Below, one piece after another: positions 18,501 to 24,500 of a stretch of 64,000 nt of DNA. Each line of letters starts with the position of its first letter. The stretch's first letter is position 1. Position numbers: made by a program. The stretch is from Escherichia coli (GTDB taxonomy: Bacteria; Pseudomonadota; Gammaproteobacteria; Enterobacterales; Enterobacteriaceae). Location of the stretch: NCBI RefSeq assembly GCF_003018115.1, contig NZ_CP027457.1, one strand, 5' to 3'.

Positions 18501-21500
18501 ATGCGGATGTCCAGGTCTGGTGCGAGGGTGCGCACACTCTCCAGCCTGCCCGTGGCGCTGTAGCCGTATTCCCGCGTCTGTCGCGGGCCGCTGATGCGCA
18601 CCAGGTCGCCGTTGTCACTCCACCCGTAGTCACGGTCATATACCAGGCTGTTCAGGTGCTGGCTCTGTAACTGGCCTGCGGGGGTGTATGTGCTGGTCAG
18701 TTCGTATGCGGCATTACTGCCTGCCATGCTGCCGAAGCTGCGCACCGTCTCACGGTGCAGCCTGTCCCGCGTATACTCGACCAGCGGCGTCCCGCCCAGC
18801 TTCATTCCCGCCAGGTAACCGCTGCCATACGTCAGCCACTCCACCGGCGGCAGGCTGTCCGGCGTGACGCGGTTTGCCAGCCCCTGCTCGTTGTATGCGT
18901 GTTTCGTCTCATGCTGCCACAGCAGTTCCCCCGTCTCCGGGTTCTCCACCGTCTGGCGTTCGCCGGTCAGGCGGCCTTTATCGTCATAGCCATAGTGGAC
19001 GGCAACACGGTGGCCTTCGCTCAGGTGGCTGATGTCTGTCAGCCAGCCGTGGCCATCATACTGCCACTGCTCTGCCGGTTCGCCGTTCACCGTGCGGTGA
19101 GTGATACGGTCCGATTCATCGTAGTACCAGAGGGTGACAAGTCCCTCATCCTCACTCTGTGTGAGTTTTCCTGTCAGGTCATAATGATAACGCTGCGTCC
19201 GCCCGTCAAAGCCGCCCTGCTGTACCAGGCGGTCCAGCGCATCGTAACTGAAATCACTGTGGCTGCCGTTCTCGTTAGTCAGACTGATGACACGTCCGGC
19301 AACATCGTACTCCATACTGCGCGTCAGCCCGCCCTGCGTGGTGCTGACCGCCTTTCCCCACGCATCGTACTGTGTCTCGCTCCGGTTGCCGTCCGGAGTG
19401 ATAACGGCAGTCAGGTCGCCTGCGGCGTTGTACTCATACTGCGTTTCACGGCCCTGTGCGTCTTTCACCGAGGTTAACCGGCCACGGTTGTCATAGCGGC
19501 GGTAACGGCTGATACCTTCCTCGCGGTGGACCGCCGTCATCTGGCCGAAGCGGTCGTATTCATAGCGGGTCTGGTAGCCCGAGCAGTCGGTGAACGCCAG
19601 CAACTGCCCGTAGCGGCTCCACGTCATCTGCCGGGTGCTGCCCGTCGCATCTGTTGTCGTGGCCGGTAATTCACTGTGCGGATTATCATAAGCATACCGG
19701 ATGACGTCCCCGCTGCGCGATGTCTCCGATACCAGCCTGCCCGGTTCATCATATGCCCGGCGGCTCTCCAGCCCGTCCGGGGACACCACCGCCGTCAGCT
19801 GGTTCCCGTCGTTATAGTAAAATTTCGTCTCCCGCCCGTCCGGTGTGGTGATGTCCGTGATATCGCCGGACACCACATTCAGACCGTACTCTGTCCGCCG
19901 TCCCGCCGCGTCCGTCTGCGCCGTGAGCCTTCCTGCCGCGTCATACCCGCTGTGCGTGACGCTGCCGTCCGCCAGTTCTTTTTTCACCACCCGTTTCAGC
20001 CCGCCTTCACCTTCTGTATGCAGCACCTCACGCCGGTTCAGGCTGTCGGTGACGGTGATGCGGTCCTGCTCATAAAGATAGCGGTAACTTAACCCTGCCG
20101 GGTTCAGTTGCTCCACCACCCGCCCCGTATCGTCGTAGCGGTAGCGCATCTCCGGCCTTCCCGCATAACGGTGCGCCACCATCCGGCCCGGGTGCTGCGC
20201 GTCATACGTGAAAGCGCGCACCTGCGTATTGCTGCGGTCATATACCGCCAGCAGTTCACCGGCTTCCGTATACGTGTACCGCACCAGTGGCGCAGCGGGC
20301 AGGCTCTCCGGGTATGCCGGGTCGTGCATCAGCCACACCGCCGAAAGGCGGATACCCCTGTCGGGGCCGTATTCGGTACCGGGCAGTGTGTCGGGGAACG
20401 CTGAGGCTGAGAGAGGGCGGGAACTGTCAGAAGAAGATAGCGAAGAGGTGCGGGCCTCTTCCGCACGCTGCGCCTGCGTGGTCAGCACCAGACGGAACTC
20501 CCGCCCGGCACCGTCCGTCACGCCGGTGATTTCCCCGGCCAGGTCGCCTGCGGCCTCACGCCGGTACGTCAGCGTCCGCCCGAAGCGGTCCGCCATCCCG
20601 GTAAGCACCCGGTACGGCGGCAGCGGCGCTGGCAGTACGTCCTCAGCACCCGGCACCCGCTCAGACCACCCCAGTATCCACCACGGCCCCTGTGCGCTGT
20701 TGGTCGCCAGGTAAAGATGCGGACTTAACCGGATATCCGGCGGCAGCGCCCCCCACAGCCGCGCCAGCGTGTGGCCGTCCGGCTGTGCTGCCTTACCACC
20801 GCGCACCAGCCACATTGACTCGCTGCGGCTGTACACCGCCTCACCCGGCAGCAGCGGCTCAAAGTGAATGCTCCGCCCGCCGTTGTCGTTGAGTATCAGT
20901 CCGTCATCACGTAGCTGTAAGCGGATATCAGAAGGCGCTTTCCAGCCGGGGCCGAAAAAGCCCACCGGTGCAGGCGTCCGGGTCCGGTAGCTGCTGTAGG
21001 TGCGGGAGAGAATGAACGGCAGCGGGCCGTGCAGCGCAAGGTCCGTCTCGCCGGGCAGCACCTTCGCCCCCAGCAGCGGATTTACCGGGTTGCCCGAAGT
21101 CATCCCGCCCGGACACACCGAGCACGCCACGCCAGTTGGCGCGCCAATTCTTACACCTGCCGACCCCTGGACAATGGGACCGCCATACTGAGTCATATCT
21201 CCCTGACGCGCCGCTGGTTTTCCGCTCATATAAAGTGCCCTTTTAGTTTTGTTCATATCCCTGTGTTAGCAACAAAAAAATAAAATGACACACAAGACCA
21301 GCTAATGTATTTATATATTTTTCACATAAACTTATTTGTTCTCAATCAACAACAACTGTTATTACAGGTCACTTTCAATATTTTATTAAACTAAAATTTT
21401 TAGCACAGATGAATTCATCATCAACAAATTCACTATATGGATAATATCCATTCAACGCATATGATTTATGATTTTATTAGTCTGAGTTATTTTTGTAGGG

Positions 21501-24500
21501 CTATATTTAAAATTATTAAACTCCACCGATTCAGATTAATATCAGCAATAGAAAAACAGGAAATCACCAATTCAATAACATCATCAATGAAACATATTGT
21601 AGAATTAATTTAAACAAGGCGTTCCATTCAACCAGAACGCCCCTTATTTACTCTCATCACCCCGCAAACTGCCTGAACAGCGCCTTACCCTTAACCAGTC
21701 TCGCGCCCAGCCAGCCGCCGAAAAGCGACAGCAGCAGCGCACCGCAGCACGGCAGAACAATCCACAATCGCCAGTCTGGCTCCCACGGGAAATCAAACAC
21801 TTTCGCCTGCAACACTGCCAGCGCCGTTTCCGCACCAATTGCGGCCACCAGGCCAGAAACAAACCCAAGCATGGCGAACTCGCACCACAATGTCGTGCGC
21901 AGCAGTTTTTTCCCCGCACCGAGTGTGCGCCACACCACCAGCTCCTGATGACGCTGACGCATTCCCACCTGCACCTGTGCCAGCAACAGCAACATACCGC
22001 AGGCGGTGACCAGCACCACCATCACCTCCAGCGCCCGACTTACCTGCTCCAGCACCTGACCGACCTGTTTTAAAATCGCGCCAATGTCTAACAGGCTAAT
22101 GGTCGGGAACTGGCGGTTGAGTTGCGTCAACATGCCGTTGCCATTCTCCCAGCGGAAACTGGTAAGCCAGCTCTGCGGTTGCCCGTCTAATGCCCCTTCC
22201 GGGAAAATAAAATAGAAATTAGGCCGCAAACTTTCCCAGTCCACTTTGCGCAGGCTGGTCACTTTAGCGCGGAACTCCTGGGTATCGCCCATAAAAGTCA
22301 CGGTATCTCCGAGGGTAACGTTTAAGCGTTTCGCCAGCCCCTCTTCCATCGACACTTCATCAGCTTTTGGCGGCCAGTTACCGGCGACAATCGGATTATG
22401 ATCGGGCCGCGTATTTTGCCAGGTAAGATTGAGTTCGCGGTTGAGCGCCTCATCTTCATTGCCTTCTGTCGGCTTGCCGTTAATCGCCGTCAGCCGCGCT
22501 CGCACCACCGGATAAAACGATTCCGGGACTATCTGATGTTCCGCGAGGAACGCTTTTAGCGGCGTAACCTGTTCTGTGGCGATGTTGATTAAAAAGTAGT
22601 TCGGGCTTTCTGGCGGTAGCTGTTGTTGCCAGCGGTCTAGCAGATCGCCACGCAACACCAGCAGCAGCGCCAGCAGCATAAAGGAGAGCGAAAAAGCTGA
22701 AAGCTGGCTTAACGTTGACCACGGCTGACGTAACAGGCGGCTAACCGCCAGGCGCAGAGGCAGCGATTTCAGCGTCATGCGGCGAAGTACATTCAGCAGC
22801 ATCCAGCCCAGCACACCGCACAGCAAAGCCAGTACTACCGCGCCCGCCAGCACCGCCCAGAGCAGCATACTGCCGCCCATTAATCCGGCAAGCAGCAGCA
22901 CAACCACCACACTGACAATCGGCAGATAAAACTTCAGCGGCCAGACGTTCGCTACCACATCATTACGTAATACGCGTAAAGGCTGCGTTGCCAGCAACAA
23001 GCGGTACGGTCGTAGCCCCACCAGCAGCGAGATGACTGTCATGGTGCCAAGCGCCCACAGCCACGGCCAGAGACTGGCAGGCGGTAGTGCAGCAGGCAGA
23101 ACGGGCTTGAGCAGCACCATCAACACGTTTTCGAACAACAGGCCTATCGCCCCACCGGTAACGGCTGAAAGCGCCAGCACCATCAACCACTGACCGACGA
23201 TTAGCTTACGCAGTTGCGCTCGCCCTGCCCCCAGCGTTTTGAGGATCGCCACCAGATCGTAGCGACTGCGACAGTAATGATTCATCGCTACCGCCACTGC
23301 TGCCACTGCCAGCAGCAAGGTCAGAAGCGCCGAAAGCAGCAGGAACTGTTGCGAGCGTTCCATCGATCGCCCCAGCGCGCCTTCGTCCTGTTCCAGACCG
23401 TACCAGCGTTGTTCGGGTTTAAGCTGAGGTAACAACCATTTCTCATAGCTGTCGAGCTGGTTCTCGCTGCCGCCGAATTTATAGCGCCAGGTGACCCGAC
23501 TCCCCGGCTGCACGGCTCCGGTTTTATCGACATCCGCCAGATTCATCATCAGACGCGGAGCCATCTGGAAGGGGTTAAAACCGGAATCCGGTTCCTGAAT
23601 CACTTCTCCGGCAATCCGCAAGGTGGCATCGCCCACGTCAATGGTGTCGCCCGTTTTCAGGTTAAGCAGTGCCATCAGGCGTGGGGCCAGCAATACGCTG
23701 CCCGCCTGCGGTTTCAGGCCAGGGGGATTGGTTTGCAGATCGCCATACATCGGGTAGATATCATCCACCGCTTTGACGTTCGCCAGCTGCGGTGTGTCGC
23801 CTGCAAATGTCATGGTGGCGAAAGTCAGCTGCTTGCCGACTTTCAGGCCGCGCTTTTGCGCTTCCTCCAGCCACGCTTGCGGCACTTCGCGCGAACTGCG
23901 CAACGCCCGATCGCCCGACATAAACTCCCGGCTTTGCTGGCTTAAGCCCTTCTCCATGCGATCGCTGATATTGCCCAGCGCCAGCACGCAGGCCACCGCC
24001 AGGCTTAGCGCCAGCCAGACAATTAATAACGACGGCGAGCGCCATTCGCGCCAGAACCAACGTGCAATCATGCTTCCTCCTGCAACTGCCCGTTCACCAG
24101 CCGTAAGCAGCGGTCGCAGCGTGCCGCCAGTTGCAGGTCGTGGGTCACCATAATCAACGTGGTGCCATGCTCACGGTTGAGGGAAAACAGCAGGTCGGCA
24201 ATTTTATCACCCGTCTGGCGGTCAAGGTTGCCGGTGGGTTCGTCGGCAAACAGCACATCAGGTCGACCGTTAAAGGCTCGTGCCAGCGCCACTCGTTGCT
24301 GTTCACCGCCGGAAAGCTGTGCCGGAAGATGATCCAGACGTTTACCCAGCCCTAACTGTTCGAGCAACGCTTTCGCTCCGTTACGACTTTCCGCGCTACT
24401 CTCACCGCGCAGCAGAGCCGGAAGCTCGACGTTTTCCAGCGCGTTAAGGGTAGGAATTAACATAAATGACTGAAAAACAAAGCCGACGTGCTTCGCGCGC

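Follow-up and report, generated by a model that had tools for sequence, protein, structure and literature searches.

The window, a 64-kb stretch (64,000 nt) of Escherichia coli contig NZ_CP027457.1, carries the core-genome gene ybbP (21657..24071; 804 aa, an FtsX-type permease by Pfam) and, downstream of it, rhs (17027..21229; 1400 aa, Pfam RHS_repeat, DUF6531 and RHS). Both genes lie on the minus strand, so the DNA between them, here called the leader, is to be read as the reverse complement. The gap is gene-free and spans exactly 427 bp (21230-21656), bordered by the ybbP stop codon (TGA, 21659-21657) and the rhs start codon at 21229. Within the 40-kb neighbourhood, where 34 genes are annotated, it is the widest intergenic gap, and its G+C content of 28.1% compares with 54.9% for the window and 60-69% for the DNA that flanks it; no other 427-bp stretch in the window is as low (rank 0.0001). 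An earlier, sequence-only reading of this DNA, which had described an unusually long and very AT-rich ybbP-rhs gap, was thus accurate on both counts. From ybbP towards rhs the gap has three parts, namely the intrinsic terminator of ybbAP, a middle part of ~385 bp at 26% G+C in which sigma-70-like sites are crowded, and the ribosome-binding site of rhs.

Boundaries of the leader and extent of its island

A terminator scan places the predicted intrinsic (Rho-independent) terminator of ybbA-ybbP on the minus strand at 21616..21643, beginning 14 nt past the ybbP stop codon, where a G+C-rich hairpin of 11 pairs, GGGGCGTTCTGG-loop-GGAACGCCTT, is followed by the T-rich tract GTTTAAATT. Its fold scores -17.4 kcal/mol (z = -2.5), a value equalled by 2 of 200 shuffles. 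The element is without change across the 7 strains of alignment A1, and in genomes with IS1-deleted islands it is the sole part of the leader remaining. The same scan returned no second terminator within the gap.

At the rhs end, the minus-strand region 21230..21256 contains an SD-like AAGGG (21242-21238) 8 nt ahead of the annotated rhs ATG, and a further ATG upstream at 21256. In 13 other strains compared, including K-12, O157:H7 and BL21, this upstream ATG starts a mini-ORF of 4 codons (MNNN*). Loss of 1 nt (at 21248) in this strain and in F9792 brings it in frame with rhs, which would add MNKTKRALY, so that a purely mechanical ORF call shortens the gap to 400 bp; the NCBI annotation of F9792, which is 99.8% identical, starts rhs at the downstream ATG, 21229. 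A homopolymeric T tract on the same strand (21274..21280), ~46 nt ahead of the rhs start codon, is T7 here and T7, T8 or T9 depending on the strain (T9 in K-12), and in a laboratory-evolved K-12 clone it is reported to have gone (T)9->10 (PMC11541549). Considered as a homopolymer switch the tract is short, and it lies outside any identified promoter spacer.

Homology with rhs-less genomes ends 3-10 nt past the ybbP stop codon, which makes that codon the left boundary of an accessory Rhs island and assigns the leader to the island. The leader is single-copy, specific to the ybbP-rhsD locus, and found in 2906 of 5426 complete E. coli genomes (53.6%). This patchy presence of leader and rhs, with the island's homology starting at the end of ybbP, bears out the earlier description of rhs as a horizontally acquired toxin gene. 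No paralogous leaders were detected upstream of other E. coli rhs genes (blastn, word size 11), and no homologous leader was present at 14 loci of other species, collected by scanning one genome per species with degenerate codons that encode the Rhs N-terminus. These loci include E. albertii, Pseudocitrobacter, Lelliottia, Paracidovorax and some metagenome bins, and the enteric ones among them have merely 100-200 nt upstream, at 35-43% G+C. Within the island itself, the rhs core is 63% G+C and the C-terminal tip 37%. The toxin tip overlaps an ORF of 163 aa that lacks a Pfam match and is presumed to be an immunity gene; together they form a second AT-rich patch on the minus strand (16555..17396), whose composition suggests that it could be a second H-NS patch.

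Sequence variation in the leader is low relative to synonymous-type sites nearby: pi is 0.0075, compared with 0.044 at ybbP third codon positions (10 strains; ~6-fold less), and in a set of 15 strains the segregating sites number 11 of 427 in the leader versus 34 of 200 at third positions (P = 5e-10). We rejected the view that this conservation is exceptional, since the core spacers qmcA-fetA, fetB-cnoX and cnoX-ybbO are at least as conserved. In its degree of conservation the leader matches ordinary regulatory spacers, as a functioning regulatory region would.

Promoter-like sites, transcription starts and H-NS

A PWM scan of both strands of the gap, a simpler procedure than the PlatProm analysis by which promoter islands were originally defined, found 19 sigma-70-like sites versus 2.7 per equal-sized tile of the window, making the gap the window's top tile at 7-fold over the average. 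However, random DNA of matched composition predicts 18.3 ± 4.8 such sites, and individual sites may therefore mean nothing. The top sense-strand candidate, TTGAGA-17-AAAAAT (21317..21345, minus strand; 10.4 bits), and the second-ranked one, TTGATG-17-AAAAAT (21396..21424, minus strand; 9.1 bits), are nominated by consensus match only. A further site, TTAATA-17-TGTAAT (21361..21389, minus strand), has been proposed as the rhsD sigma-70 promoter from genomic SELEX, in which RpoD holoenzyme binds the K-12 ybbP/rhsD spacer in vitro (Table 3, PMC3946193). It has one exact match in the whole window, is the same in 7 strains, and would direct initiation near 21354, giving a 5' UTR of ~125 nt.

The K-12 copy of the leader is ~98% identical, and the leader is a base-for-base homologue of the ybbP/rhsD island 522099_304, which is among the 78 promoter islands listed for K-12 (PMC3661553). 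Mapped via alignment A1 from Table 1 of that paper, the K-12 island (522099-522402, U00096.2) is equivalent to 21309..21612, a segment of 24% G+C that would be the platform for H-NS/StpA and RNA polymerase. Two hallmarks of a promoter island are found here, an extreme density of predicted start points over at least 300 bp and a tie to a horizontally acquired gene. On a third, polymerase binding with little or no full-length product, the K-12 copy has an RpoD-holoenzyme SELEX peak and no Cappable-seq start in the leader. The supplement of a promoter-island study published in eLife in 2024 makes no mention of the ybbP/rhsD island.

Transcription start-site mapping, which had been put forward as a check on the leader, did not place a start within it. 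In wild-type K-12, Cappable-seq has no plus-strand site between 518615, which lies upstream of ybbA and is the last such site ahead of rhsD, and 523635, which with 523647 makes up two weak start sites internal to rhsD; hence no sense-strand start falls in the leader. In Salmonella, rhs is reported to carry strong internal promoters (PMC7043789). The proposal that the gap contains the rhs promoter is supported by the one put forward there in K-12 from SELEX; promoter prediction returns numerous candidates, but their number is no higher than composition gives, and in wild-type K-12 the leader is free of Cappable-seq starts.

The gap is markedly more AT-rich than its host, the compositional mark of a target of xenogeneic silencing. 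Matches to the TCGATAAATT-like H-NS motif, a consensus that reportedly goes back to Lang et al. 2007, number 15 in the gap when up to 3 mismatches are allowed, a mild excess over the 10 ± 3 at matched composition, and the best of them has 2 mismatches. The AA/TT dinucleotides of the gap show no 10-11.5 bp phasing (94% of simulations score higher), so that A-tract phasing lends no support to curvature, another of the checks that had been suggested.

H-NS is found on the K-12 ybbP/rhsD island in 3 of the 3 ChIP-chip studies compared (those of Grainger, Oshima and Kahramanoglou, as compiled in PMC3661553), and genomic SELEX gives an H-NS site in the K-12 spacer (PMC3946193). According to Supplementary Table 1 of PMC12460168, rhsD rises 1.9-fold in K-12 Δhns (log2 +0.90), and this small effect of Δhns alone is a caution against the account that we favour below. 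The rhsD entries of the same source give a rise of ~30-fold in Δhns ΔstpA (log2 +4.93) and ~43-fold in netropsin-treated cells (log2 +5.43), a whole-gene measure for which internal promoters could account. The corresponding normalised counts are ~170 in the wild type, ~330 in Δhns, ~130 in ΔstpA, ~5,000 in Δhns ΔstpA and ~7,000 with netropsin. Those entries also flag K-12 rhsD as overlapping a chromosomal hairpin, and the list of horizontally transferred genes that the study used, as it appears there, does not mark rhsD, a further point against the account favoured below. Binding in all of the ChIP-chip studies compared and derepression in Δhns ΔstpA together substantiate, for the K-12 copy, the earlier claim of H-NS-type silencing sites.

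Accounts of the leader

We think it probable that the RhsD accessory island has in this gap its 5' regulatory end, which H-NS/StpA silencing keeps unproductive. The hairpin right after ybbP would stop ybbAP transcription from running into rhs, and the ~385 bp at 26% G+C that follow would be coated by H-NS, with StpA as back-up. The same AT-richness would create many sigma-70-like sites open to RNA polymerase binding, and the nucleoprotein filament would occlude or trap the polymerase, such that no productive rhs transcript results in ordinary growth. The weak Shine-Dalgarno and ATG would begin the Rhs protein, whose expression would need both silencers to be removed or displaced. The binding and silencing properties seen in K-12 should carry over to this strain, and we infer both the identity of the promoter that would fire once silencing is lifted and the mechanism of trapping. 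The sequence-only interpretation is supported, and is already known from K-12.

A different account holds that the leader is inert AT-rich debris at an old insertion edge, passively bound by H-NS, and that rhs is governed elsewhere by internal promoters or read-through. Its promoter-like and H-NS-motif densities are those predicted by composition alone, the two weak Cappable-seq starts lie inside rhsD and none in the leader, and related rhs genes of other species are found without a homologous leader, all as would be expected of debris. We nevertheless regard this account as unlikely. An inert spacer would not be expected to show ~6-fold lower polymorphism than the synonymous-type sites next to it, with conservation about equal to that of neighbouring core regulatory spacers, nor to be selected in vitro by RNA polymerase holoenzyme, as the K-12 spacer is. 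The 30- to 43-fold rise of the whole K-12 rhsD gene in Δhns ΔstpA or with netropsin, as given in the rhsD entries of PMC12460168, also speaks against it.

It is distinctly improbable, in our judgement, that rhs is simply the last gene on a joint ybbA-ybbP-rhs transcript, in which the gap would be a long intercistronic region and control would lie in termination or read-through at the hairpin, not in initiation. The three genes do share a direction, the last plus-strand start ahead of K-12 rhsD is the one upstream of ybbA at 518615, and rhsD in wild-type K-12 reaches ~170 counts in the data of PMC12460168 despite the lack of a start in the gap. Such a transcript would, however, have to pass a strong and invariant hairpin with a T-rich tail placed 14 nt past the ybbP stop, and other cargo alleles at this site carry terminators of their own. 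Moreover, dependence on netropsin and on H-NS/StpA implicates the AT-rich DNA rather than the terminator.

The sole ORF of at least 30 aa wholly within the gap lies on the plus strand at 21437..21613 (58 aa). We rejected it as a gene because it has no Shine-Dalgarno and an in-frame stop interrupts it in 5 of 6 further strains, and likewise rejected the small ORFs on both strands, among them several of 12-29 aa, which are also without a Shine-Dalgarno; the earlier statement that the gap holds no ORF of note can stand. Rfam returned no match over 20900-22000 even at a permissive threshold (E <= 1), the fold of the 155-nt putative 5' UTR is no more stable than those of its shuffles (z = +0.6), and the gap does not have the character of a cis-regulatory RNA leader or a small RNA. 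Direct, inverted and tandem repeat searches yielded short, chance-level matches only. That the gap conceals an unannotated small RNA or small protein on either strand can accordingly be set aside as extremely improbable, for although conservation is above neutral, and the ORFs just described are accompanied by plus-strand promoter-like sites such as TGGATA-16-TATGAT (21438-21465), the longest ORF is broken in most strains, Rfam, folding and the search for a second terminator all came back negative, and the RefSeq annotation is blank here in the genomes listed.

Relation to known systems

The promoter island of K-12 at ybbP/rhsD (Shavkunov et al. 2009; Panyukov & Ozoline 2013, PMC3661553) is the same locus in nearly the same DNA. 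Spanning ~300 bp with very many potential start points, it binds RNA polymerase and H-NS, is transcriptionally silent, and adjoins a gene scored as horizontally acquired (PMC3661553). The leader described here differs from it by a few substitutions, by T7 instead of T9, and by the 1-nt deletion that joins the upstream ATG to rhs. The appY promoter island (Bykov et al. 2020, PMC7054387) belongs to the same class of element and has been studied by mutagenesis; an excess of overlapping promoters was proposed in that work to lower output via polymerase interference. A phage-receptor Tn-seq paper that names rhsD often proved irrelevant to the leader.

AT-rich DNA likewise lies beside acquired toxin genes in other cases of H-NS/StpA xenogeneic silencing. 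These include the chromosomal hairpins (CHINs) of Micro-C maps, in which, as PMC12460168 describes them, StpA backs up H-NS and either netropsin or the double deletion derepresses, and the H-NS-silenced SPI-6 T6SS/rhs of Salmonella, as cited in PMC7043789. In contrast to both, AT-richness in the present island is confined to the leader and the 3' tip, and because the 3.6-kb Rhs core between them is 63% G+C, a filament running unbroken across the gene is unlikely.

Silencing through the leader would account for the silent rhsD of laboratory E. coli, and it points to the promoter and to anti-silencing factors as the things to look for. The locus is a clean instance of the general rule by which very AT-rich edge DNA of an acquired toxin island draws both RNA polymerase and H-NS/StpA. 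It also offers a caution, for composition by itself yields as many promoter-like sites as the "excess" seen here, yet the stretch is conserved like a regulatory region. Beyond a tidy annotation the significance is small, and the finding is correct but ordinary.

A bolder extension, which we consider rather doubtful, would make the leader (21230-21615) and the tip (16555-17396) the two arms of a single H-NS/StpA-bridged hairpin that loops out the 3.6-kb Rhs core. The leader would then be conserved by selection for the clamp, the T tract and the indel that fuses the upstream ORF to rhs would tune leaky expression, and the design of the Hcp-ET (tssD-toxin) allele at the same site (L004) would exemplify a general rule for type VI effector cargo at this hot spot. 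That allele starts a few bases past the ybbP stop and carries its own hairpin terminator, followed by an AT-rich stretch (19.5% G+C) ahead of the type VI secretion effector gene; its leader is unrelated in sequence to that of rhs and far shorter, at 168 bp.

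The RhsD island end and its alternatives

The gap between ybbP (minus strand; 804 aa, FtsX-type permease domains; TGA stop at 21659-21657) and rhs (minus strand; ATG at 21229; 1400 aa with RHS repeats, DUF6531 and RHS core) measures 427 bp at 28.1% G+C against a window mean of 54.9%, bearing out the AT-rich non-coding leader that the sequence-only reading had described at 21230-21656. The rhs start used here is that of the NCBI annotation in F9792, a 99.8%-identical strain. No 427-bp stretch in the 64 kb is lower in G+C, and no intergenic gap in the annotated 40-kb neighbourhood is longer. 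The leader is single-copy. Of 5426 complete E. coli genomes, 2906 have it (95-99.8% identity), in every case flanked by ybbP and an rhs gene; in genomes without it homology ends 3-10 nt past the ybbP stop and other cargo fills the ybbP-mnmH interval. It is therefore the left end of an accessory RhsD island and not core DNA. No homologue of the leader was found ahead of related rhs genes in other species. A second AT-rich patch (16555-17396, 33-37% G+C) spans the Rhs C-terminal tip together with a 163-aa ORF that overlaps it, so that both ends of the island are AT-rich and the core between them is 63% G+C; the ORF has no Pfam match, and tip and ORF are presumably a toxin/immunity pair.

The ybbP-mnmH interval, bounded at 21657 (loci L002, L003 and L004), is a hot spot for cargo: at least four alleles occur there, all diverging 3-10 nt past the ybbP stop. 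The RhsD island occupies it in 53.6% of genomes. In L003 the cargo is a dinQ-like type I toxin with REP elements; in L004 it is tssD (667 aa), an Hcp-toxin fusion, together with four DUF2931 genes, and this allele has a terminator of its own and a leader of 19.5% G+C. In some genomes the terminator alone is retained beside an IS1, an IS1-mediated deletion allele. Type VI secretion effectors make up two of the hot-spot alleles, and both of these have a terminator and an AT-rich leader of their own.

Anatomy and constraint of the leader

Against transcription of rhs by read-through from ybbAP stands a putative terminator hairpin with a T-rich tail (21643..21616, minus strand), found by terminator scan 14 bases past the ybbP stop codon, whose fold is more stable than 198 of 200 shuffles and which is unchanged in the 7 strains compared. 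The remaining 386 bp beyond the hairpin are 26% G+C and carry, within the final 20 nt, an SD-like AAGGG on the minus strand 8 nt ahead of the rhs ATG. Because the sense strand of the leader holds more G than C (76 vs 44), we infer that it is a poor Rho-loading substrate. The leader has no Rfam match and no meaningful repeats, and the putative 5' UTR of rhs no unusual RNA structure. A hidden small product is made unlikely by the lack of any credible ORF in the gap, as the sequence-only reading had held: a 58-aa plus-strand ORF is interrupted by a stop codon in K-12, O157:H7, BL21 and two further strains.

Nor is the leader likely to be an inert spacer. Across 15 strains it has 11 segregating sites in 427, compared with 34 in 200 third codon positions of the flanking 300 nt of ybbP and rhs (Fisher P = 5e-10), a contrast that remains when A/T sites only are considered; among 10 strains (±20 kb), diversity is 0.0075 in the leader and 0.044 at ybbP third positions. 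Core spacers nearby (0-0.003, 10 strains) are conserved at least as well. With diversity below third positions and not below core spacers, the leader shows the constraint of an ordinary regulatory spacer; it is not decaying junk, nor is it exceptional. Elsewhere in the window, third-codon diversity reaches 0.09-0.10 in allA, allR, gcl, hyi and glxR (~2650-12200; loci L005 and L032-L039) compared with 0.02-0.05 in surrounding genes (10 strains), which indicates a deeply divergent haplotype block in the allantoin region, probably a recombination import.

Two variants lie close to the rhs start. A T tract lies 46 nt upstream of the ATG on the minus strand (21274-21280) and reads T7 in the window strain and T7, T8 or T9 among the 15 strains; at the corresponding rhsD-upstream tract, T9 became T10 in a laboratory-evolved K-12 clone (PMC11541549). 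A 1-nt deletion at ~21248, found among the 15 only in the window strain and F9792, puts the ATG at 21256 in the rhs reading frame, where it would extend the protein by nine residues (MNKTKRALY), which is why mechanical ORF calling gives 1409 aa instead of 1400 aa; in the 13 other strains this ATG opens a four-codon mini-ORF (MNNN*).

Promoters and silencing

In a sigma-70 position-weight scan the gap scored 19 promoter-like sites, where an equal-sized tile of the window averages 2.7 and random sequence matched in first-order composition gives 18.3 ± 4.8; a stricter scan gave 2 sites (1.6 expected). The apparent promoter "island" is therefore a by-product of AT-richness. Matches to the H-NS motif are slightly above compositional expectation. 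Curvature, judged on helical phasing of AA/TT dinucleotides alone, is unsupported, no phasing being seen in the gap.

The sequence-only reading also suggested that this gap may hold the rhs promoter and H-NS-type silencing sites. The K-12 copy, which differs at ~2% of positions, is catalogued as promoter island 522099_304 (ybbP/rhsD; 21612..21309 here), scored as bound by H-NS in each of the three ChIP-chip data sets compared and as associated with acquired genes (PMC3661553). Genomic SELEX places RpoD-holoenzyme and H-NS sites in the same spacer and proposes TTAATA-17-TGTAAT as the rhsD promoter (PMC3946193), a sequence found at a single place in the window, 21389..21361. Normalised rhsD RNA-seq counts in K-12 are ~170 in wild type, ~330 in Δhns, ~130 in ΔstpA, ~5,000 in Δhns ΔstpA and ~7,000 with netropsin, and rhsD is marked as a gene that overlaps a chromosomal hairpin (PMC12460168). 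Taken together, these published results support the interpretation for the K-12 copy and make it already known: the AT-rich leader was correctly observed, and is a previously catalogued, ordinary feature.

We consider it probable, on functional data that all come from K-12, that terminator insulation is combined with H-NS/StpA silencing of an AT-rich platform. The terminator would shield rhs from ybbAP transcription, H-NS, with StpA as back-up, would coat the platform and block or trap polymerase at promoter-like sites within it, and rhs expression would need anti-silencing. The derepressed transcript could instead start at internal promoters and not at the candidate promoters of the leader. 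Cappable-seq of wild-type K-12 detected no plus-strand start site between 518615 and 523635, and therefore none in the leader, and two weak sense-strand sites inside rhsD (U00096.2 523635 and 523647; PMC4782308). These lie ~1.15 kb into the gene in its GC-rich core, roughly at window position 20080; part of rhs transcription may be initiated internally, and Salmonella rhs has internal promoters (PMC7043789).

H-NS probably also targets the other two stretches of lowest G+C in the window. One, 30515-31112, is the spacer between two divergent genes, one for a YadA-family adhesin and the other hypothetical and absent from K-12. The other, 58573-59101, takes in the start of a 451-aa ORF together with DNA upstream of it; this ORF stands ahead of the gene for a 6,925-aa adhesin (36464..57241), which is accompanied by type I secretion genes.
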